Source: Thermoplasmata archaeon
GTDB taxonomy: Archaea; Thermoplasmatota; Thermoplasmata; Lutacidiplasmatales; UBA184
Direction: 5' to 3'
Length of the DNA stretch: 49,299 nucleotides
Assembly (NCBI GenBank): GCA_030037855.1
Contig: JASHPY010000122.1
Coordinates: 1 to 49,299 of the forward strand
This document shows positions 10,166 to 49,299 of this stretch, piece after piece. Below the pieces are notes generated by a model. That model had not been told where the DNA came from. It did not search any database and saw only the letters and a list, made by a program, of their open reading frames with translations. Each line of letters starts with the position of its first letter. Positions within the stretch are counted from its first letter, which is position 1. A program made the position numbers and the translations under genes.

Positions 10166-10813
10166 ATGACCCTCGCGATCGTGCTCGCGGGAGGCCGGGG
10201 CCGTCGACTCCGGCGACCGGGCGTGGAGAAGCCGCTCGTGCGGGTCGGTGGCGCGACGCTCCTCGCCCGGGTCGTGTCGGCGGTCCGTCCGGCGCCGGGG
10301 GTCGACCTGCGCGTCGCCGTGAGCCCGCATACCGTCCGAACCGCCCGCGCCTGCCGCGACTTCGGACTCGAAGCGCTGGAGACGCCGGGCGCCGGCTACG
10401 CGACGGACGTCGGATACCTACTCGGACGATTCCCCCGGTTCGCGACGATCTCCGCGGACCTGCCGTTCCTCGCGCCCGCGGCGGTCGTGCGGTTCCTCGG
10501 CGCCGCGACCCGGTCGGCGACGGGCCTCGTGGGCGTGCTGCCGATTGAACGCTGCCGGTTTCCCGTCCCGGACGACCTCGCGTGGCGGCTCGAGCCCGGC
10601 GGCCGGGTCGCCGGGCGGATGGTCGGTATCAACTGGGTCGTCGCGGACGCCCCGGCTCCGGATCGCCTCTACCGGTTCGATGACCCGGAGCTCGAGTACA
10701 ACATCAATCGTCCGATCGATCTCGTCCGGGCCCGGCGCCACGCCGCGCGAGGCGCCCCGACCACACCGCGTCTTCCACTCCTAGGCGCGCCTCCCAGGCG
10801 TACCGATCGGTGA
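10166..10813 (+). CDS. cobY: Adenosylcobinamide-phosphate guanylyltransferase, archaeal type
   Basis: The N-terminal nucleotidyltransferase motif is MTLAIVLAGGRGRRL...EKPL. The gene lies between cobS and cbiZ. The start is the internal ATG (M70 of the track ORF). Confidence 0.75.
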   Translation: MTLAIVLAGGRGRRLRRPGVEKPLVRVGGATLLARVVSAVRPAPGVDLRVAVSPHTVRTARACRDFGLEALETPGAGYATDVGYLLGRFPRFATISADLPFLAPAAVVRFLGAATRSATGLVGVLPIERCRFPVPDDLAWRLEPGGRVAGRMVGINWVVADAPAPDRLYRFDDPELEYNINRPIDLVRARRHAARGAPTTPRLPLLGAPPRRTDR

Positions 10814-11474
10814 GCGGTAGGCTCCGCGCGGCCGCTGAGATCCTCGCCCGTGACCAGCCGCGCTCGACCAGCCGCGCGCGGATCGTGCGGTCGAGCCGAA
10901 TCCCGTCCCCGATCACGAGGCTCTCGGCCACGGCGGCCGCCACCATCGCGCCGAGAGCGCGGCCCCGCGGCGTCGCCGCACCGCAGTACTCCCAGCGCTC
11001 GCCGGAGTTTTCGCACGCCACCACAACCGCATCCGTCGACGTGCCCGTCGCCGGAGCGCGGCCGTCGTGCACGTCGAGTCGTCGCAGCGCGGCGCCCTTG
11101 GCCTCGGTCGCCACCTTGACGGCCTCCACCATCGCCCCCGACGTCGGCACCCCCGAGAGGACGAGTACGATGTTGATCGTCCCGACGAACGCCGCGTTCG
11201 ACACGCCCGCCGTCACGAGCACGGTTCCGTAGCGACTCCGGCGTGTCGCGACCGCCCGTAGATCGACGGCGGTGAGCAACCCCACCACGGAGCGAAGCCT
11301 CGTGCGCCGCTCGAAACGGCGGAAGAACGACGGAACCGGTTCATGGTACGACTTCGGAACGTGGACGTTGACGATCGTGCGGGCTCGACGGGCCCCCCCG
11401 TGCCAGGGCGCCGAGCTCACTACTCGAAAGTCCCCGCGAACCAGGAGGTACTCCTCCCGGATCGACCAGTGCAT
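10704..11474 (-). CDS. cbiZ: Adenosylcobinamide amidohydrolase
   Basis: The 256-aa protein contains VSSAPWHGG, LLTAVDL, GTINIVLVL and ATGTSTDAVVVA, a CbiZ-like pattern. It sits in a B12 context. It overlaps the cobY 3' end by 110 nt in convergent orientation. Confidence 0.75.
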   Translation of the reverse strand: MHWSIREEYLLVRGDFRVVSSAPWHGGARRARTIVNVHVPKSYHEPVPSFFRRFERRTRLRSVVGLLTAVDLRAVATRRSRYGTVLVTAGVSNAAFVGTINIVLVLSGVPTSGAMVEAVKVATEAKGAALRRLDVHDGRAPATGTSTDAVVVACENSGERWEYCGAATPRGRALGAMVAAAVAESLVIGDGIRLDRTIRARLVERGWSRARISAAARSLPLTDRYAWEARLGVEDAVWSGRLARRGAGPGRDRSDD

Positions 11475-11572
11475 GTCGGGCCGTCCGCCCGCGCCACTTC
11501 ACGATTGCGGGCCGGCGCGGGGTGTCGGGAGGCCAGCACCGCCTCGGAGGCCCTTACCGGGGCGCGACGCTA

Positions 11573-12334
11573 ATGGGACCCTACTCGGTGGGCCCGCTGA
11601 TGGACGGGGCGGAACCGAACGGAGCGGCTCAGCGAGCGAGGGACGAGGTCACCCCCCGGGACCGCGAGGGGTTCTACCGGGTCCTCTACGGCCGGCGCGA
11701 CATCCGGTCTCAGTTCCTACCGGACCCGATCCCGGACGAGGTCCTCGTCGCGGTCCTGAGGGCGGCGCACCACGCCCCATCGGTCGGGTTCATGCAGCCG
11801 TGGAACTTCGTGGTCGTCCGCGACCGCGCCATCCGTGAGAAGGTCCGCGCGAACTTCGAGGAGGTGCGACGCGAGGGCGCCGCCCAGTTCTCCGGTGAGC
11901 GAAGGTCGCTCTACGATTCGCTGAAGCTCGAAGGCATTCTCGACGCCCCGGTCAACATCTGCGTGACGTGCGACCCCGACCGGGCCGGGAAGGCCGTTCT
12001 GGGCCGCGTCCGAGTGCGGGAAGTGGACGTCTTCTCCACCTGCCTCGCGATCGAGAACCTGTGGCTGGCGGCGCGGGCGGAGGGTCTCGGCGTCGGCTGG
12101 GTGAGCATCCTCGACCCGGAGCGGGTCCGGGACCTCCTCGAAATCCCGGTCGGGATCTCTCCGCTCGCCTATCTGACGATGGGATATGTTCGCGAGTTCC
12201 CCCGGCGACCCGAGCTCGAGACGAAGGGATGGGCGACACGGGCCCCGCTCGACGGGCGGATCTTTCTGGACCGGTGGGGCGCGAGGTATCCGTCGCCCCT
12301 CGATACACCTCCGGTCGCTACGACCGATCGCTGA
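11573..12334 (+). CDS. bluB: 5,6-dimethylbenzimidazole synthase (nitroreductase-fold BluB)
   Basis: The motifs YGRRDIRSQFLPDPIPDEVL..AAHHAPSVGFMQPWNFVVV, LEGILDAPVNICVTCD and GLGVGWVSIL are present. The start is either ATG 11573 or the ORF maximum at 11522. Confidence 0.85.
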   Translation: MGPYSVGPLMDGAEPNGAAQRARDEVTPRDREGFYRVLYGRRDIRSQFLPDPIPDEVLVAVLRAAHHAPSVGFMQPWNFVVVRDRAIREKVRANFEEVRREGAAQFSGERRSLYDSLKLEGILDAPVNICVTCDPDRAGKAVLGRVRVREVDVFSTCLAIENLWLAARAEGLGVGWVSILDPERVRDLLEIPVGISPLAYLTMGYVREFPRRPELETKGWATRAPLDGRIFLDRWGARYPSPLDTPPVATTDR

Positions 12335-13943
12335 GTCGGCGTCCCGGCGGCCCGAGCCGACGCACCAAGGCGCTGAGGTCGACGTGCGCCTCCAGAAGAT
12401 CCGCCACGGCGTCGATCGTTCGGTCCAGCCCGGGGAAGACCGCGTCCGGGCCGGTCGGAACGCGGTGCCGGACGGACGGCTTCCGTGGAGGGGCACTCCC
12501 CCCTACCCACCGCACGAGACCCTCGAGGGCTTCCGACGACCCGAGCGCGCCGTGGAGCAGGGTGCCCCAGACACGACCGTCCGCGGTCCGGGCGCCGTCG
12601 GGTTCCGTCGGCTCGGCGAAGTCGCCCGAGGCGGAGACCGAGAAAATCGGGTTCGTGGAAGCGCCCCGGACGACCTGGCCCCGATGGATCTCGTACCCTC
12701 GGATCCCCGCGCCGAGACGTAGCCAGGGGTGGCCCCGGTAGGCGCGCGCCGTCACCAACCGGACCACCTTCGAACCCCGGAAGCGAGTCGCTACCGGCAA
12801 GAGGCCGAGCGCTCGATGGTGGCCGGGCGGGCCGTCCCATCCCTCAGTGTCGTGGAGCCACGTTCCGAGCAACTGGAACCCGCCGCAGATCCCACCGACG
12901 CCGGCTCCCCGCGCCCGAGCTTGGCGCAGCGCTCTCGGCCAGCCGCCCGCCCGTAGCCAAGCGAGATCGTCCCCGGTGCGCCTCGTCCCCGGAAGTAGGA
13001 TCGCCGAGCACTCCGCGATTTCGCCCGCGGAGCGGACCCAACGCGTGTCGAGCTCCGGACACCGTTCGAGCGGCTGGAAGTCGGAGAAGTTCGCGGTATG
13101 CGGGAGTCGGACGATACCGAGTCGCGGAAGGCCCGCCCGACCCGGCGATCGCGGCGCGCGCGCCAGCTCCAGCGAATCCTCCGGCGGGAGCGCCCCGGCC
13201 TTCGCTGGAAGCATCGGGAGCACGCCCAGCACGGGCACCCCGACGCGGTCCGCGGTCCACGCCATCGCGGGCCGGAAGAGCCGTTCGTCTCCTCGAAGCC
13301 GATTGAAGATGATGCCACAGACCCGGGCGCGTTCGGACGGCGTGAGGAGCTCGAGCGTCCCCACGACCTGCGCGAGCGAGCCGCCACGCTCGAGGTCCGC
13401 GACGAGGATCACGGGGATGTCGAGCACCTCCGCGACGAAGAAGTTCGAAAGATCGCTCTGACGCAGGTTCAGCTCGACCGGCGAGCCGGCGCCTTCCGCG
13501 ACGACGACGACGTCGGACTTGCGGAGCGTCGCGAGCGTTCGCCGGATCTCCGTGCGGAGCCGCGGCAGCTGGGCGGGCATTTCGCGACGCCAGGAGCGGA
13601 GCCGGGCTACCGGCCGACCGCGGAGGATGACCTCGACGCTCCCGTCGTAGGGCTTCAGCAGCACCGGGTTCGCGTCCGCCGAGGCCGTGACCCGCGCGGC
13701 GGCGCACTGCACCCACTGCGCGATCGCGATCTCCGCCCCCGTTTCCGTGGCGATCGAGTTGAGGGACATGTTCACCGCTTTGAACGGCGCTACGCGGTAG
13801 CCACGGCGGACGAGCGCGCGGCAGAGCCCGGTCGTTACGAAGCTCTTGCCCGCGTCGCTCGTGGTCCCCGCGACGAGCACGCCCGGCGCGCGAGAGGACC
13901 GCTCGCTACCACTCGATTCCCGGGCGGGCATCCATCCCTCCAT
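12318..13943 (-). CDS. cobQ: Cobyric acid synthase
   Basis: The N-terminal P-loop-like domain begins VLVAGTTSDAGKSFVTTGLCRAL. A C-terminal glutamine amidotransferase domain carries GGICGGFQLLG. Confidence 0.9.
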   Translation of the reverse strand: MEGWMPARESSGSERSSRAPGVLVAGTTSDAGKSFVTTGLCRALVRRGYRVAPFKAVNMSLNSIATETGAEIAIAQWVQCAAARVTASADANPVLLKPYDGSVEVILRGRPVARLRSWRREMPAQLPRLRTEIRRTLATLRKSDVVVVAEGAGSPVELNLRQSDLSNFFVAEVLDIPVILVADLERGGSLAQVVGTLELLTPSERARVCGIIFNRLRGDERLFRPAMAWTADRVGVPVLGVLPMLPAKAGALPPEDSLELARAPRSPGRAGLPRLGIVRLPHTANFSDFQPLERCPELDTRWVRSAGEIAECSAILLPGTRRTGDDLAWLRAGGWPRALRQARARGAGVGGICGGFQLLGTWLHDTEGWDGPPGHHRALGLLPVATRFRGSKVVRLVTARAYRGHPWLRLGAGIRGYEIHRGQVVRGASTNPIFSVSASGDFAEPTEPDGARTADGRVWGTLLHGALGSSEALEGLVRWVGGSAPPRKPSVRHRVPTGPDAVFPGLDRTIDAVADLLEAHVDLSALVRRLGPPGRRLSDRS

Positions 13944-14493
13944 GGTACGGATGCTTCATCCCGACCATCATCGTGACGAGGTGCGCGCGATCGAGCAGCA
14001 TCTTCGGCGCTCCGCGCCCCGTCAGGACGAGTTCGGTGGTAGCGGCCTTCTGGTCCAGGAGCTCCACGACCTCCGCGACTGGGATGAGCCCGCGGACGAT
14101 CGCCGTGTTGACCTCGTCGAGCACGACCAGGTCGAACGCGCCGCTCGACGAAGCGCGACGCCCGCTGCGGAGCGCTCGGCGGGCCAGCTCGAGATCCTCT
14201 TCGGCCGGCCGGTCCCGCTTCACCCAGTGACCGCTGCCGTACTGTTCGATGTGAACTCCGGGGAGCTTTCGCAGGGTAACGATCTCGCCGTAGTTCCCCT
14301 TCTTCATGAACTGGATGAGGCAGCAACGAAGTCCGTGCCCGACCGCGCGAGCGATGAGACCAAAGCTGGCCGTACTCTTCCCCTTCCCTCCGCCGGTGTA
14401 GACCTGGATGAGCCCGGTCGTGAGCGGCGTGCGGCGCGACCGGGGGGGTACCTCGAACCGGGGGTAGGTCGGCTCCTCCTCGTTGTACGGCAT
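13906..14493 (-). CDS. cobA: Cob(I)yrinic acid a,c-diamide (corrinoid) adenosyltransferase, CobA/CobO/BtuR type
   Basis: The motifs IQVYTGGGKGKSTASFGLIARAVGHG, LIQFMKG and VVLDEVN are present. Length is 195 aa. Confidence 0.9.
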   Translation of the reverse strand: MPYNEEEPTYPRFEVPPRSRRTPLTTGLIQVYTGGGKGKSTASFGLIARAVGHGLRCCLIQFMKKGNYGEIVTLRKLPGVHIEQYGSGHWVKRDRPAEEDLELARRALRSGRRASSSGAFDLVVLDEVNTAIVRGLIPVAEVVELLDQKAATTELVLTGRGAPKMLLDRAHLVTMMVGMKHPYHGGMDARPGIEW

Positions 14494-14603
14494 CGCTCCC
14501 TCGCCTAACCCGCGTCGAGCCGACCGGCGCTCGCTCCGGCCCGTCCGAGATCGGAGCGAGCCGCGGGCTCGCTGATAACTCTCCGGAGGCTCGGAGGCGG
14601 GTC

Positions 14604-15092
14604 GTGTCGCTCGTGCGCTTCCATGTGGTCTGTGGTGGCGGAACCGGGTCGCAGCTGCTGCGCCGGCTCCACGCGAAGGGCTACGAGCTCTCGGCCGGAG
14701 TCCTCGCGGAGAACGACGACGACGCGCTCACCGCGAGCGCCCTGGGCGCCACGGTCGTGCTCGCGCCGATACCCGGGTCGATCGAACCGAAGATCCTGGC
14801 ACGCGTTCGTCGGTGCATGCTCCGTTCCGCCGGAGTGATCCTCACCCCGTTCGCTGTCGGGCGAGGCAACCTGCCGAACCTCGAGGTCGTTCTCGGACTG
14901 CCCCCGGAGCTCCCGGTCCTGATCGTCGTCGGGGGCGAATTCGCGCGACGCGACTACACGGGAGGCGAGGCAACTCGGATCTACGAAGCCCTTCGAGCGC
15001 GGGCGCTCGCGTCCGTGGCCTCGAGCGAGGATCTTGTGCGCGAGGTCACCGCGCGATTCCCTCTCGGGCCGGATTTCCGTTCGGGCAACTGA
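14604..15092 (+). CDS. Hypothetical protein, free-standing copy of the 'HVVCGGG(S/T)G' domain
   Basis: GTG start, 162 aa. It aligns by eye along its whole length with the C-terminal ~150 aa of the ATPase at 17364..18644, with roughly one third of residues identical. It is the first gene of the importer operon and is divergent from cobA. Confidence 0.7.
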   Translation: MSLVRFHVVCGGGTGSQLLRRLHAKGYELSAGVLAENDDDALTASALGATVVLAPIPGSIEPKILARVRRCMLRSAGVILTPFAVGRGNLPNLEVVLGLPPELPVLIVVGGEFARRDYTGGEATRIYEALRARALASVASSEDLVREVTARFPLGPDFRSGN

Positions 15093-15139
15093 GCCGAGTC
15101 GGACCCTGGGATCGTAGCAACCGCGGTCCATCACGCCAG

Positions 15140-15160
15140 CCTTATCTACAACAGATATTA
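15140..15160 (+). promoter_or_regulatory. Putative promoter (TATA-like elements) of the substrate-binding protein gene
   Basis: This is an isolated AT-rich patch, CCTTATCTACAACAGATATTA, located 17-37 nt upstream of ATG 15177. The octamer CCTTATCT recurs upstream of cobS (9319..9326). Confidence 0.35.
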
Positions 15161-15176
15161 CAGAATTCCTACGCAT

Positions 15177-16229
15177 ATGAACGCGACCCCACCGACCTCC
15201 GAGGAAATCGACCGCCCCCGCCGCGGCGCTCGCACCTGGCTCCCCACCGTCGTCCTCGCCATCCTGCTCGTGGCCGTGGTCGCGATCGCGGCGCTCGACC
15301 TCACCGTTTTCCGTCCCGCGGCGGCCTCGAGTTCCAGCACGCAGGGTTCCGTCACCGTGGTGGACGACTCGGGACGGTCCGTCACCGTCAGCGGAGTTCC
15401 TACCCGAATCATCGTGCTCGGTCCGAGCGTGATGGACATCCTCTTCCGATTGGGGCTGCGCGCCGACGTGGTCGGCGTGGACGGGGGTCCGGCGTCGGCC
15501 GGCGGTGTACTGGACGACTACTCTCCGGGTCAGGTCGCCAACTGGAGCCTCAGCTCCCTGCCGGTCATCACCTGGGATCCCACGCTGGACGTGGAGGCGG
15601 TCATCGCCCTCAACCCGGACCTCGTCGTCGCCGGATCCGGCTTCTCGCTGTCCCAGCTCGAGTCGCTGCAGAGCACGTACGGTATCCCCTGCCTCTACCT
15701 CAATCCCCCCACGCTTGCCGGGATCGAGTACGACGTCTCGATCGTCGGAGCGGTCACCCGCACCAACGCGACCGCGGTAGCGCTGAACGAGCAGATGGAG
15801 GCGTCGATGCTGTCCGACGCGAATGAGCTCGTCAACATCACCGCCGTGCCGTCCGTGTTCCTGACCTACTACCCCGACGCCGGAGGCTATTGGACGTTCG
15901 GGCCGGGCAGCTTCGGCAACGACCTCATCTTGGACGCGGGTGCGACCAGCATCACGGAGAACGACACGCTTGCCAATTCCGAGGAGGTCAGCGGCAGCTA
16001 TATTCTGGCCGCGAACCCGGCGGCGATCATCGTCGGCACCGGCTTTGGGCTCGAGGAGCAAAACTACTCCCTCTCCCCCGACTGGTCGTCGTTCGGAGCC
16101 GTTCAGGCGGGTCACGTGATCGCGCTCAACGCGATCTACCTAACCGAGCCCGACCCGAGCATGATCTTCGGGCTCGCGAACCTCATTACCCTCCTCCATC
16201 CTGAGCTCAGCGGTGGGACGCCCCTCTGA
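15177..16229 (+). CDS. ABC importer substrate-binding protein, BtuF/FhuD-like (class III PBP), membrane anchored
   Basis: The protein has an N-terminal TM anchor. The motif PTRIIVLGPSVMDILFRLGL.ADVVGVD is typical of the PF01497-type family. It lies upstream of a FecCD permease. Confidence 0.85.
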   Translation: MNATPPTSEEIDRPRRGARTWLPTVVLAILLVAVVAIAALDLTVFRPAAASSSSTQGSVTVVDDSGRSVTVSGVPTRIIVLGPSVMDILFRLGLRADVVGVDGGPASAGGVLDDYSPGQVANWSLSSLPVITWDPTLDVEAVIALNPDLVVAGSGFSLSQLESLQSTYGIPCLYLNPPTLAGIEYDVSIVGAVTRTNATAVALNEQMEASMLSDANELVNITAVPSVFLTYYPDAGGYWTFGPGSFGNDLILDAGATSITENDTLANSEEVSGSYILAANPAAIIVGTGFGLEEQNYSLSPDWSSFGAVQAGHVIALNAIYLTEPDPSMIFGLANLITLLHPELSGGTPL

Positions 16230-17367
16230 ACGGTCGGTCCCCTCGGTCGCTCGGCTCGAGGATCCGGGCCTCGGGCCGCGTCGCGGGCGTGGACCGACGC
16301 GCACCCTCCTCGTTGTGGGCGTGGCGTTGCTCGTGGGCACGCTCGCCTCCCTCGCGGTCGGGCCCGTCGCGATCCCCCCCGAGAACCTCGCGTACCTGTT
16401 GTTGCACCGGATCGGCCTCCTCGCAGTCCAGGACTGCCCCACGCGTCTGGTGGTGGACGGGACCTCGGTGCCCTGTTCGATCCAGGCCGAGATCCTGTTC
16501 GACTCGCTGCTACCGATCGTCCTCCTGTCGCTATTGGTCGGCGCGGCCCTCGCTCTGTCGGGGGCGGCGATGCAAGGCCTCTTCCGCAACCCGCTAGCCG
16601 ACCCCTACCTCCTCGGCATCTCCTCGGGGTCTGCCCTGGGTGCCGCGCTGGTGTTCGTGAACGCCTCGTTCCTTGGGATCACGCTCGAGGCGGGCCAGCA
16701 GGACATACTCGTACCGCTGCTGGCCTTCCTCGGCGCGTTCGCGGCGGGTCTTGTCGTGCTGGTCGCGTCCCACTCCCGGTGGGCGAACGCGGAGACCCTG
16801 ATCCTCACCGGTGTTGCGCTCGCGGCCATCTTGGGGGACCTCATGGTCCTCGTGATCTCGCTGCGGCCGCTCGCCGTCGCGCTGCCGCTCACGTTCTGGC
16901 TACTCGGCGGCTTCGAGTCCGCCACCTGGGATCAGGTGGGCGTCCTGGCGGCGGTGGTGGTGGTCGCCGGCGGGATTCTGATCCTCCACGGGCGCGTGCT
17001 GAACGTCCTCCAGATGGGGGAAGAGACGGCCGCCGGACTGGGGATCTCGGTGCCGTCGATGCGTCGCCGACTGATCCTACTGTCGGTCATCCTGACGGCC
17101 ACCGCGGTCGCTTTCTCGGGTGTGATCGGCTTCGTGGGTCTGGTCTCGCCGCATATCGTCCGCCGGATCCAGGGCCCGAACTATCAGTCTCTGTTGCCGG
17201 CGTCCGCGCTCGTGGGCGCGCTGCTGCTCGTGGTCGCGAACGACGTCGCGACCTCGGTCCTGGGCGGCGGGGCCATATTGCCGGTCGGGGTGGTGACCGG
17301 TGTGATGGGCGGGCCGTTCATCCTCTACCTCCTCTACCGTCGCCGGAGCTCGGCGGGGTCGGCATGA
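16213..17367 (+). CDS. FecCD/BtuC-family ABC importer permease
   Basis: The motif LALSGAAMQGLFRNPLADPYLLGISSGSALGAAL is present and the protein is polytopic. It overlaps the next gene by ATGA. Confidence 0.9.
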   Translation: MGRPSERSVPSVARLEDPGLGPRRGRGPTRTLLVVGVALLVGTLASLAVGPVAIPPENLAYLLLHRIGLLAVQDCPTRLVVDGTSVPCSIQAEILFDSLLPIVLLSLLVGAALALSGAAMQGLFRNPLADPYLLGISSGSALGAALVFVNASFLGITLEAGQQDILVPLLAFLGAFAAGLVVLVASHSRWANAETLILTGVALAAILGDLMVLVISLRPLAVALPLTFWLLGGFESATWDQVGVLAAVVVVAGGILILHGRVLNVLQMGEETAAGLGISVPSMRRRLILLSVILTATAVAFSGVIGFVGLVSPHIVRRIQGPNYQSLLPASALVGALLLVVANDVATSVLGGGAILPVGVVTGVMGGPFILYLLYRRRSSAGSA

Positions 17368-21110: not shown

Positions 21111-23144
21111 TCAGGGCGCCGCGATCCGTCGCATCGGAGGTTCCGTGCCCCGGCGGACCTCGCGGATACGGTCGCGGATGCGGGCCGCTTCCTCGAAGTC
21201 GAGCCGCTCGGCGGCGAGCCGCATCTCCTCCTCGAGGTTGGCGATCAGTAGCGGCATCCGCTCCTTCCACTTCTTCCCGAGTCCCGAGGTGGAGAGGTCA
21301 CCGGACGAGGCCCCCTCCTCGGGGCCGAGGAGCGCGCGGACCTCCTTCTGGATCGACTCGGGGACGATCCCGTGCTCGCGGTTGAACTCGACCTGGACGG
21401 AGCGGCGCCGGGCCATCTCGGCGATCGCTCGGGCCATCGAACCCGTGGTCCGGTCGGCGTACAGCACGACCTTCCCGTCGACGTTCCGACTCGCGCGGCC
21501 CGCGGTCTGGACGATCGACGTCTCGCTCCGGAGGTAGCCCTCCTTGTCGGCGTCGAGGATTGCGACGAAGCTGACCTCGGGGAGGTCGAGACCCTCCCGA
21601 ACGAGGTTGATCCCGACCAGCACGTCGAACCGGCCGACGCGCAGGTCCCGCAGGATCTCGACCCGCTTCAGCGTCTCGACCTCGGAGTGAAGGTACCGGA
21701 CCTTGAACCCCTGGTTCGCGAGGTACGTCGAGAGTTCCTCCGACGTCGCCTTCGTGAGCGTGGTGACCAGCGCCCGGTCCCCCCGGGCGATGCAGGCGCG
21801 TAGCTCGACGATCAAGTCGGCGATGTGGCCCTTCAGGGGTCGGACCTCGATCGGCGGGTCCACGAGACCGGTCGGCCGGATGATCTGCTCGACCAACCCC
21901 TTCGACGCCTTGCGCTCGAACGGACCGGGGGTCGCGGAGACGAAGATGAGCTCGGGGACGTGTTCGAGGAACTCGGGGAAGCGGAGCGGCCGGTTGTCCC
22001 GGCACGACGGAAGGCGCCACCCGAACTCGACCAGGTTGTCCTTCCGGCTTCGGTCGCCCTTGTACATCCCCTGGAGCTGCGGGACCGTGACGTGGGACTC
22101 GTCCAGGAAGACGAGGAGGTCGTCCGGGAAGAAGTCGAGGAGCGTGTACGGCGGCTCGCCCGGGCGCCGCCCGGAGAAGTAGCGGGCGTAGTTCTCGATC
22201 CCCGAGCAGTACCCGGTCTCGCGGATCATCTCGAGGTCGTACTCGACGCGCCCCTGAAGGCGCTGGGCCTCCACGATCTTCTCGGCCTGCCGCAGCTCCG
22301 CGACGCGCGCCACCTTCTCCTTCTCGACCTCGCCGAGGATCGAGCGGACGCGCTCGTCGACCGAGAGAAAGTGCGTCGCGGGGAAGATCGACAGCTGCCC
22401 GAGGTCGCGGACCTCGTCCTGGGTGATGGGGTCGAGCTCGACGATCGCGCCGATGGTGCTGCCGTCGAGCACGATCCGGTGCACGGTCTCCCCCGCGCCC
22501 ATCACGTCGACCGTCCCGCCGCGGACCCGGAAGCGGCCCCGCTTGAGCTCGATGTCGTTGCGCTGGTACTTCATCCGCACCAGCTGCTCGAGGAGGCCCT
22601 GCCGGCCGATCGTCTGGCCGACCGCGAGGTCGACCACGGACGCGCGGTAGTCCTCCGGGGAGCCGAGACCGTAGATGCAGCTCACCGAGGCGACGATCAG
22701 CACGTCCCGACGCGTGAGAAGGGCTTGGGTCGCCCGGTGCCGCAGACGGTCGATCTCCTCGTTGATCGAGGCGTCCTTCTCGATGTAGAGGTCGATCTGG
22801 GGAACGTACGCCTCGGGCTGGTAGTAGTCGTAGTAGCTCACGAAGTACTCGACCGCGTTCCGCGGGAACAGCGCCCGGAACTCGCTGACCAGCTGCGCGG
22901 CAAGCGTCTTGTTCGGGCTCACGACCAGCGTCGGGCGCTGGAGGCGCGCGATCGTGTGCGCCATCGTGAACGTCTTGCCGCTGCCGGTGACGCCGAGCAA
23001 CGTGACGTACTTCTCGCCCCGCTCGACCCGTTCGACGATCGCGTCGATCGCGTTCGGCTGGTCGCCCTGGGGCTGAAGGTCGGTCTCGAGCTCGAAACGA
23101 CCGGGGAGCGCGGTCGGAGCGCCGCGCGGGTCGGTGCCGGTCAC
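21111..23144 (-). CDS. uvrB: Excinuclease ABC subunit B
   Basis: The motifs PQGDQPNAIDAI, GVTGSGKTFTMA, YFVSYYDYYQPEAY and a C-terminal UVR motif (LDFEEAARIRDRI) are present. The start is GTG 23144, which overlaps the stop of the upstream gene (GTGA). The 392-aa upstream extension in the track is Arg/Pro-rich nonsense. Confidence 0.93.
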   Translation of the reverse strand: MTGTDPRGAPTALPGRFELETDLQPQGDQPNAIDAIVERVERGEKYVTLLGVTGSGKTFTMAHTIARLQRPTLVVSPNKTLAAQLVSEFRALFPRNAVEYFVSYYDYYQPEAYVPQIDLYIEKDASINEEIDRLRHRATQALLTRRDVLIVASVSCIYGLGSPEDYRASVVDLAVGQTIGRQGLLEQLVRMKYQRNDIELKRGRFRVRGGTVDVMGAGETVHRIVLDGSTIGAIVELDPITQDEVRDLGQLSIFPATHFLSVDERVRSILGEVEKEKVARVAELRQAEKIVEAQRLQGRVEYDLEMIRETGYCSGIENYARYFSGRRPGEPPYTLLDFFPDDLLVFLDESHVTVPQLQGMYKGDRSRKDNLVEFGWRLPSCRDNRPLRFPEFLEHVPELIFVSATPGPFERKASKGLVEQIIRPTGLVDPPIEVRPLKGHIADLIVELRACIARGDRALVTTLTKATSEELSTYLANQGFKVRYLHSEVETLKRVEILRDLRVGRFDVLVGINLVREGLDLPEVSFVAILDADKEGYLRSETSIVQTAGRASRNVDGKVVLYADRTTGSMARAIAEMARRRSVQVEFNREHGIVPESIQKEVRALLGPEEGASSGDLSTSGLGKKWKERMPLLIANLEEEMRLAAERLDFEEAARIRDRIREVRRGTEPPMRRIAAP

Positions 23145-47805: not shown

Positions 47806-48522
47806 GTGACGGACGAGCGGCTCGCGACGGGCGTCGCGTCGGTCGACCGACTGCTCGGGGGCGGGCTCGAGGCCGACTGCGTCACCGAGATCTACGGGGA
47901 GGGCGGCAGCGGCAAGACGCTGTTCTGCCTCGAGGTCGCGACGCGGGTCGCGCGCGAGGGCCGCTGGGTGTTCTACATCGACACCGAGGGCGTGAGCGTG
48001 GACCGACTGCGGGCGATGGCCGGCGACGACCTCGAGCGGATCCTCAAGCGCTTCCTTCTCTCGACCCCGAAGAGCCTCGAGGAGCAGGGCCGGGCGGTCG
48101 CGACCGCCTGCGCGCTCGCGCGGGAGGGGAAGCGACCGGTCGGCCTGGTCGTCGTCGACTCGGCCACGTTCTACTACCGGCTCTCGCTCTCCGGCTCCGA
48201 CGAGGACGACGCGCGCCAGGCGCTGAGCCTCGAGCTCGCGGACCTGGTCGTGACCGCGCTCGCCGCGCACGTGCCGGTGCTGATCACGAACCAGGTGTGG
48301 CGCAACGTCCGGGACGGTACGCTCGAGCCGCTCGGCGGGTCGTTCGTTAACCATGCGGCGAAGACGATCCTCCGGCTCGACCGGCTCCCGGGCCCTCGGC
48401 GTCGCGCCGTGCTCATCAAGCACCGAGCGCTTCCCGAAGGCACCGCCGAGTTCCGCATCACCGTCCGGGGGCTCGAGGGACCCGTTCCCTCGGAGCGTTC
48501 CACGGTCCCTCCCTCCCCGTGA
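47806..48522 (+). CDS. radB: DNA repair and recombination protein RadB
   Basis: The motifs VDRLLGGGLE..VTEIYGEGGSGKT (Walker A) and VVVDSAT (Walker B) are present. Length is 238 aa, with no RadA N-terminal domain. Confidence 0.88.
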   Translation: MTDERLATGVASVDRLLGGGLEADCVTEIYGEGGSGKTLFCLEVATRVAREGRWVFYIDTEGVSVDRLRAMAGDDLERILKRFLLSTPKSLEEQGRAVATACALAREGKRPVGLVVVDSATFYYRLSLSGSDEDDARQALSLELADLVVTALAAHVPVLITNQVWRNVRDGTLEPLGGSFVNHAAKTILRLDRLPGPRRRAVLIKHRALPEGTAEFRITVRGLEGPVPSERSTVPPSP

Positions 48523-49151
48523 CTGGAACCCAGATAAACCGGGACGACCTGCGAAACGGGATGACGGAGCCGGTCGAGTTCGCGGACGTTCCGACGCAGA
48601 TCGGCACCTTCCGCATCGCCTACCAGGGGTCGACCGTGCGGGTGGTCGACCTCTTGGAGCAGGGACGCAAGCAGACGGGCACCCCCATCGGGGCCGTCCG
48701 GCGGAAGCCGCCGTTCCCGGCGGCGAGCCCCCCCCGGCAGCTCCAGGAGTACTTCCGTGGGCACCGCGCGGCGTTCGACCTCGACGTCGATCCGGACACC
48801 ACTTCGGACTTCGACCGGAAGGTCTGGAAGATCCTCCGGGCCGTTCCGGCCGGGAGAACGATCAGCTATTCGGAGCTCGCCCGGCGGTCGGGCCACGCCG
48901 GCTCGGCCCGCGCCGTCGGAGGCGCGATGGCGCGAAACCCCATCCCGATCGTGATCCCCTGCCACCGCGTCGTGGGTACCGAGGGCTCGATCACGGGCTT
49001 CGGCCTCGGGCTGTGGCGAAAGCGCTGGCTCCTCGACCTCGAGGGAGCGTGGCCGATTCGGTCCCGGTCCGCCGAAGGACCGAGCCATCGGGGCCAGCGG
49101 ACCCTGGACGAACTCGACGACGCGTCCGAGCGACGACCCCGGGCGCATTAG
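48519..49151 (+). CDS. ogt: Methylated-DNA--protein-cysteine methyltransferase
   Basis: The active site IPCHRVV is present, along with SYSELA...ARAVGGAMARNP. The GTG start overlaps the radB stop (GTGA). Confidence 0.9.
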   Translation: MTGTQINRDDLRNGMTEPVEFADVPTQIGTFRIAYQGSTVRVVDLLEQGRKQTGTPIGAVRRKPPFPAASPPRQLQEYFRGHRAAFDLDVDPDTTSDFDRKVWKILRAVPAGRTISYSELARRSGHAGSARAVGGAMARNPIPIVIPCHRVVGTEGSITGFGLGLWRKRWLLDLEGAWPIRSRSAEGPSHRGQRTLDELDDASERRPRAH

Positions 49152-49270
49152 CTACTACTCATTGTAGTAGCTAGTTCGGGTTCAAGCTACGTGCCCCGTA
49201 GTAGCTTACCGACGAACATACTACACACCGTAGTAGGTTGTCGAAACTACCTACTACCGATTGTAGTAGG
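49149..49270. promoter_or_regulatory. Array of phased CTACTAC-N5-GTAGTAG palindromes in an AT-rich island (putative operator or iteron array)
   Basis: Three good palindromes are read directly from the sequence. They are 49149..49173 (TAGCTACTAC-TCATT-GTAGTAGCTA), 49218..49236 (ATACTAC-ACACC-GTAGTAG) and 49250..49270 (CCTACTAC-CGATT-GTAGTAGG). A degenerate copy lies at 49184..49207. An ATG follows at 49271. Confidence 0.55.
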
Positions 49271-49299
49271 ATGGCGTCCTCGGAACGGCTCCGAGCTCA

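Follow-up and report, generated by a model that had tools for sequence, protein, structure and literature searches.

The window, as we call the whole 49,299-nt stretch analyzed here, carries toward its right end a short array of palindromes between two gene tails. Upstream of the array lie a proteasome-exosome superoperon, a beta-CASP nuclease gene, radB and ogt; the GTG start of ogt and the stop of radB share four nucleotides (GTGA, 48519-48522), so that the two genes form one translationally coupled unit. What lies beyond was read from contig L001 (GCA_030046715.1; 2840 bases), which was found through a look-up of the Ogt protein, belongs to a near-identical strain and extends past the window end. 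According to this contig, a spacer of 145 bp holds the array; ogt, on the forward strand, and the gene for elongation factor 2 (EF-2), on the reverse strand, both have their 3' ends there, and relatives carry the EF-2 gene at the end of an S12-S7-EF-2 operon (Pfam hits to EF-2, S7 and S12 in L021). The sites are thus located between the stop codons of two convergent genes, and no promoter is evident at the array.

This arrangement bears directly on the original prediction, which had placed the palindromes in the promoter or start region of a probably leaderless, perhaps autoregulated gene. That setting has to be given up, as the gene that actually follows is EF-2, which runs toward the array. 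As had been observed, the last palindrome is separated by one base from an ATG at 49271; however, this ATG opens only 12 codons, with a stop just beyond the window, relatives differ in this segment, and the reading frame is not a gene. The drop in GC described after ogt was reproduced: GC content is 0.555 at 49100-49299 versus 0.70-0.73 upstream, in a genome of 72% GC. The features of the locus are collected in Table 1.

Table 1. Features at the ogt/EF-2 spacer, in window coordinates
Feature	Position	Strand	Remarks
ogt, O6-alkylguanine-DNA alkyltransferase, 210 aa	48519..49151	+	Pfam DNA_binding_1; PCHR motif in translation
Site P1, full 25-bp dyad TAG-CTACTAC-TCATT-GTAGTAG-CTA	49149..49173		exact pattern match; 35.7 bits
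Site P2, decayed	49184..49207		right half-site CCGTAGTAGCTT at 49196-49207, 19.3 bits; no full-site score
Site P3, full, one core mismatch, AAC-ATACTAC-ACACC-GTAGTAG-GTT	49215..49239		37.6 bits
Site P4, full, TAC-CTACTAC-CGATT-GTAGTAG-GAT	49248..49272		36.0 bits
ATG reading frame, not a gene	49271..49299	+	12 codons, MASSERLRAQPA; stop just beyond the window
GC-rich dyad CTCGGA-ACGGC-TCCGAG	49279..49295		directly after the EF-2 stop; predicted hairpin
EF-2 (elongation factor 2) stop codon TGA	49297..49299	-	L001 2261-2839, minus strand; Pfam hits in L021

Pattern and matrix scans of the window identified three strong CTACTAC-N5-GTAGTAG palindromes and one decayed copy near its end. The window contains 11 copies of the heptamer GTAGTAG or of its complement, versus 0.6 expected, and the cluster of seven heptamers that had been claimed is real, although it consists of six exact copies within 49152-49269 and a seventh, ATACTAC at 49219-49225, with one mismatch. 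Matches to the palindrome pattern are exact at 49152-49170 (P1) and 49251-49269 (P4) and carry one mismatch at 49218-49236 (P3); the remaining matches in the 49-kb window, three with 3 mismatches each, are at chance level. We also scored the window with a 25-bp matrix derived from the sites of relatives (maximum possible score 44 bits), and no position outside the array exceeded ~2 bits, the next-best scores being offsets of P1 and P4. The degenerate P2 was recovered by its right half-site; its left arm is reduced to AAGCTAC, with AAGCTAC/GTAGCTT pairing still possible. The four centers fall at 49161, ~49195.5, 49227 and 49260 and are thus 34.5, 31.5 and 33 bp apart. The complementarity between P3 and P4 that had been pointed out is present as well, trivially so because the palindromes are repeated. 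Elsewhere in the window, two tandem GTAGTAG heptamers (GTAGTAGTCGTAGTAG) lie at 22818-22836 in the uvrB coding region, on the opposite strand; they score 2.2 bits with the matrix and are a coding coincidence rather than a site.

The ogt stop codon (TAG, 49149-49151) doubles as the left flank of P1, a coincidence that is probably trivial, since in a genome with few stop codons the site brings its own TAG or TAA. Strain differences affect the center of P1 (49161-49162) and a linker and leave the arms unchanged. Logan contigs from four peat metagenomes (runs X1-X4) stop within the array, between 49158 and 49242 of the window; short-read assemblies tend to break at its repeats, which is probably why contigs end at this locus. 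At the other side of the spacer, the GC-rich dyad may form a 3'-end structure of the EF-2 transcript, as its predicted fold suggests; in relatives, the segment beside the EF-2 stop comprises 42 nt with a median of 75.5% GC and is weakly structured (median z -0.69). An Rfam search of the stretch up to E 10 returned no relevant family, ARAGORN found no tRNA in it, and none of the RNA sequencing runs searched for the stretch holds it.

To follow the array across relatives, we used an Ogt search that yielded 80 loci from Thermoplasmata metagenome-assembled genomes (Ogt identity 64-84%), among them the named Ca. Lutacidiplasmatales members AcS1-36, AcS1-3, AcS13-54 and UBA184. This uncultured order inhabits acid soil and peat and has ~69% GC (PMC9287336). 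The tail-to-tail order of ogt and EF-2 is retained in nearly all of the 80 loci, and sites, defined strictly by a five-base spacer and up to 3 mismatches, are present in 64 of them, with one to five copies each and 139 in total, every one in the ogt/EF-2 spacer. The comparison of orthologous intergenic regions that had been proposed comes out in favor of a conserved motif. In an alignment of eight close relatives, the palindrome arms are the only invariant columns of the spacer, the centers and linkers being scrambled. On a tree built from Ogt and EF-2, 60 of the 73 placed genomes have sites under the strict definition, while those scored as array-less fall into about five groups, requiring at least about five presence/absence changes; a few of the genomes scored as site-less still keep degenerate copies or copies with a four-base spacer. 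This distribution is consistent with an ancestral array that was then lost several times. The array is dispensable, because relatives whose spacer measures only 16-33 nt do without sites. Together, these comparisons show an array inherited at one locus across the order Ca. Lutacidiplasmatales.

We then asked how far the motif extends beyond this spacer. In the loci of relatives, the 25-bp matrix gave 151 matches within spacers and none above 14 bits in the other ~1.38 Mb of flanks, and the search for other sites that had been proposed with the original prediction yielded none, either in these flanks or, beyond chance level, in the window. An exact-pattern scan of metagenome contigs returned 115 matches: 29 with high GC represent the same ogt/EF-2 locus; five further high-GC matches lie on contigs with Actinobacteria-type or other bacterial genes (including LmeA, ResB, a cydAB-purM neighborhood and a BlaR1-like peptidase); and the rest belong to unrelated organisms of lower GC. 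No second Thermoplasmata locus with the motif appeared among the metagenome contigs, and a scan of viral contigs gave 20 unrelated or chance matches, none beside ogt or EF-2. As far as tested, in the window, the 80 loci, their ~1.38 Mb of flanks and the metagenome contigs, these archaea have the motif at this one locus only. Literature searches with the heptamers returned no description of this element.

Two classes of repeat were considered and rejected. REP/BIME extragenic palindromes resemble the present sites in being short, clustered, variable in copy number and placed between convergent genes; however, REPs occur as tens to hundreds of dispersed copies, and a REP/BIME or MITE-like dispersed repeat is incompatible with zero matches outside the spacer in ~1.38 Mb of related DNA. 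A CRISPR-like array was dismissed because the unit is too short and spacer-like stretches are absent.

The sites of relatives define a 25-bp consensus, wA-S-CTACTAC-RRNYY-GTAGTAG-S-T-w, in which the central five bases are symmetric by class only. Across relatives, the two half-sites vary independently of each other, yet each is conserved as sequence, and deviations from the core are almost never compensated in the opposite arm. The flanking S positions (pair 0/20) pair at chance level, with CG in 45 sites, GG in 27, CC in 26 and GC in 23, and at the central pair 8/12 (AC 33, AT 27, GC 26, GT 19) the commonest combination is A-C, in 33 of the 139 sites. At those clearly variable pairs that were tested (-2/22, 0/20, 1/19 and 8/12), base pairing is as frequent as expected from shuffling, a slight excess being confined to -3/23 and 9/11. 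By contrast, the geometry is rigid: among exact sites, 55 have an arm spacing of N5 and 7 of N4, with no case of N3 or of N6 and more, which puts the half-site cores 12 bp apart. The linkers between sites peak at 13-16 bp, giving centers 32-35 bp or about three helical turns apart. This value is a mode with a broad tail, so that of the helical phasing originally claimed the ~33-bp interval between centers stands and strict phasing does not. As judged from these substitution patterns, the sites show selection on duplex sequence and not on base pairing.

These data bear on the alternative that the palindromes work as RNA, namely as 7-10-bp stem-loops in the 3' untranslated regions of ogt and EF-2 that terminate transcription in both directions or keep the exosome from degrading the transcripts 3' to 5'. 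Such hairpins would account for the placement of the palindromes strictly between gene 3' ends, loci with inserted genes included, and for their being the same on either strand; moreover, the flanks of P1, P3 and P4 lengthen the possible pairing in the window, and the palindromes are predicted to fold strongly as RNA or single-stranded DNA (z -4.9 and -3.9). Such folds, however, follow automatically from any palindrome, and the independence of the half-sites together with the uncompensated core changes reveals no selection for pairing, just as the class-symmetric center most commonly holds A and C. The stem sequence is identical across an entire order, unlike that of ordinary terminators, and is missing from every other gene end examined. 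Nor is there a U-tract after the stem: a terminator scan found no hairpin followed by a T-run at the spacer, where the flank consensus is just S-T-w. The suggestion that P1 might double as the ogt terminator fails on the same two counts, the lack of a T-run after P1 and of selection for base pairing. We regard an RNA hairpin function as rather unlikely, although a sequence-specific factor might recognize such a hairpin.

With moderate confidence, we instead read the spacer as an array of high-affinity sites for one putative sequence-specific DNA-binding protein with two-fold symmetry. Independent half-sites, uncompensated deviations and rigid spacing point to such a protein reading each half-site on the duplex, and the idea of an array for a dimeric protein, already part of the original prediction, gains support from these conserved half-sites, the class-symmetric center, the fixed spacing and the preference for 32-35 bp between centers. 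With the latter spacing, several dimers could line up along the spacer.

One close counterpart of the motif is bacterial. Operators of the BlaI/MecI/CopY family (PF03965, Penicillinase_R) have the same dyad, TACTAC-N5-GTAGTA, with the full form CTACTAC-N5-GTAGTAG, and the motif of Mycobacterium tuberculosis BlaI, attributed to Sala et al. in 2009, is reportedly TAC[GT]AC-N5-GT[AC]GTA. In our scans, two bacterial contigs (L162, 2098-2529; L096, 2591-3021) have TACTAC-N5-GTAGTA directly at the start of a Penicillinase_R repressor gene, and the same palindrome lies beside a BlaR1-like M56/M48 peptidase gene in a third (L168, 5420-6824). The CopY box TACANNTGTA represents the classical core of this family (PMC7253601). 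In Actinobacteria-type contigs L124, L184 and L195, the palindrome was seen before or beside redoxin/L,D-transpeptidase, glyoxalase-family and cydAB genes. The archaeal sites share with BlaI-type operators a dyad with TAC-type arms at fixed spacing and differ in that they overlap no promoter: BlaI-type operators are single or paired and lie inside promoters, often that of the regulator's own gene, whereas the archaeal array comprises up to five sites between gene 3' ends, with no promoter and no PF03965 gene nearby. A tblastn search with a bacterial BlaI-like protein against the window and the 80 loci returned nothing below E = 1 and no homolog within ~10 kb.

A second counterpart is archaeal. 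TrmB/TrmBL1 (Tgr), a winged-helix dimer, binds the Thermococcales glycolytic motif TATCAC-N5-GTGATA, which has the 6-N5-6 dyad and the TA..AC/GT..TA outline of the present sites; it differs in arm sequence and in serving promoters of a dispersed sugar-metabolism regulon, as opposed to one non-promoter locus here. Since bacteria use the same palindrome as a BlaI/CopY-type operator, the presumed binder is, by analogy, probably a dimer of the winged-helix type whose geometry resembles that of BlaI/CopY or of TrmB.

A bound array need not act on transcription at all. It could be a chromosomal landmark, centromere-like or chromosome-organizing, at which a dedicated protein nucleates in the manner of ParB-parS, SegB or AspA, the position between convergent genes being merely a harmless place for it. 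Such a role would suit a locus that, as far as tested, occurs once per genome and consists of clustered, roughly phased palindromes in variable copy number; SegB sites, the AspA palindrome and parS/parC arrays are likewise clusters of short palindromes, few per replicon. Sites of this kind are bound by a dedicated dimer. Known archaeal segregation proteins do bind short palindromes (bioRxiv 10.1101/2025.02.07.637068; PMC13722703), but the present motif is unlike the SegB consensus TCTAGA-S-TCTAGA (bioRxiv 10.1101/2025.02.07.637068). Also unlike centromere-like sites, the array has no adjacent partition operon, and no ParA/SegA-type gene was found among the ORFs scanned, namely those of the window outside the corrinoid block (~6-16 kb) and of ~10 kb downstream. 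Furthermore, the array has been lost in several lineages, being missing from about five groups on the tree with no relocated copy seen. We consider a landmark function quite unlikely.

The spacer has also received genes. The inserts comprise a PNPOx-like gene (six loci), a zinc-ribbon protein (two), an AAA_33 kinase (two), a GNAT protein (one) and a 5.6-kb low-GC island (one). The PNPOx-like genes (~155 aa) lie on the minus strand between ogt and EF-2 (L020, 10731-11324; L106, L109, L125, L136 and L178), belong to one sub-clade, share 67-82% mutual identity and have palindromes on either side; they gave no Pfam hit and are of the PNPOx-type split barrel by appearance. The zinc-ribbon inserts (~260 aa, with an N-terminal CxxC...CxxC) are 59% identical to each other and have palindromes on both sides in L108 (2020-2805) and L156 (1998-2810). 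The island in L070 (~10800-16400) has 57-62% GC versus ~70% in its host and lies between the array and EF-2; hardly any Pfam match was obtained for its ORFs, none of which was seen to encode an integrase. For comparison, the gap that separates the uracil-DNA glycosylase (UDG) gene from PolB has insertions of 0.5-1.8 kb in L015, L027, L051, L055, L057, L066, L069 and L071, a higher frequency than at the ogt/EF-2 spacer.

These inserts raise the alternative that a gene-cassette or recombination system uses the palindromes for crossover or as junctions, an empty array being a docking row for genes. At least five different gene sets have been inserted at the spacer in different lineages, often flanked by sites on both sides; however, genes that entered a spacer already rich in sites could end up flanked by them anyway. 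Strand exchange requires identical cores, whereas the central five bases differ here within one genome and even between the two sites around one insert; a five-base spacer is, moreover, unfit for tyrosine recombinases, and the center of five (rarely four) bases contrasts with the conserved 6-8-bp central region of Xer/dif-like sites. No recombinase gene lies nearby, the motif is not dispersed, and the frequency of insertion at the spacer (4/74) is no higher than in the site-free UDG-PolB gap (8/53). Because insertion frequency is not raised and the five-base centers vary, a recombination function is disfavored and, in our judgment, very improbable. A dif site in particular was rejected in view of the several copies and their variable five-base center.

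A replication origin or iteron set of ORB-like elements is extremely improbable: the spacer is an AT-richer island with repeated dyads, near replication and repair genes (radB, ogt, UDG and PolB), but it has 55% GC without a long AT-rich unwinding stretch, ORB elements lack perfect two-fold symmetry, no orc1/cdc6 gene was found among the same scanned ORFs, and several relatives have a site-free spacer of 16-33 nt. The related notion of an integration boundary, which the original prediction had offered together with ORB-like elements or iterons, fares no better, since neither Orc1/Cdc6 nor an integrase or ParA is encoded by those ORFs and relatives exist without the array.

Returning to the array of protein-binding sites, what it might do at this position is less certain than the protein-site reading itself. 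Transcription-factor sites are normally located in promoters, whereas these occur only at the edges of transcription units. We tentatively suggest that the bound array would separate the radB-ogt and S12-S7-EF-2 operons, which are transcribed toward each other, in the manner of a protein barrier or insulator that keeps the polymerases of either operon from entering the other in antisense. Such a barrier would be useful because the spacer is without an oligo-T terminator; on the other hand, a general mechanism would be expected at other operon ends as well, yet the motif is absent elsewhere. A stronger version, in which a winged-helix dimer coats the spacer and forms a roadblock to RNA polymerases from both sides and perhaps to replication forks, is unlikely. 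Protein-site arrays at the 3' end of heavily transcribed units have precedents in the TTF-I Sal boxes and Reb1/Nsi1 sites of eukaryotic rDNA and in bacterial RTP-Ter, RTP itself being a winged-helix dimer; this comparison concerns the possible working of the array and not family membership, and the sites for TTF-I, Reb1 and RTP are polar and not perfect palindromes, unlike those described here. We know of no roadblock or fork-barrier array system described in archaea.

The novelty of this locus lies in its setting: palindromes of operator type, with no promoter beside them, have persisted very long at one conserved position, where two core operons of an uncultured archaeal order meet tail to tail. 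Binding-site arrays are usually read as promoter switches, and AT-rich palindromes at the edge of a window should not be taken for promoters. If the roadblock reading were correct, the radB-ogt operon would be insulated from the heavily transcribed S12-S7-EF-2 operon, the array would be a functional analogue of the eukaryotic TTF-I/Reb1 terminator arrays, and it would be, to our knowledge, the first case described in archaea of a terminator or insulator that is site-specific and depends on a protein. More generally, if a protein binds these sites, the array would offer a testable entry to how GC-rich, oligo-T-poor archaea delimit their transcription units and to whether they mark a unique chromosomal site.
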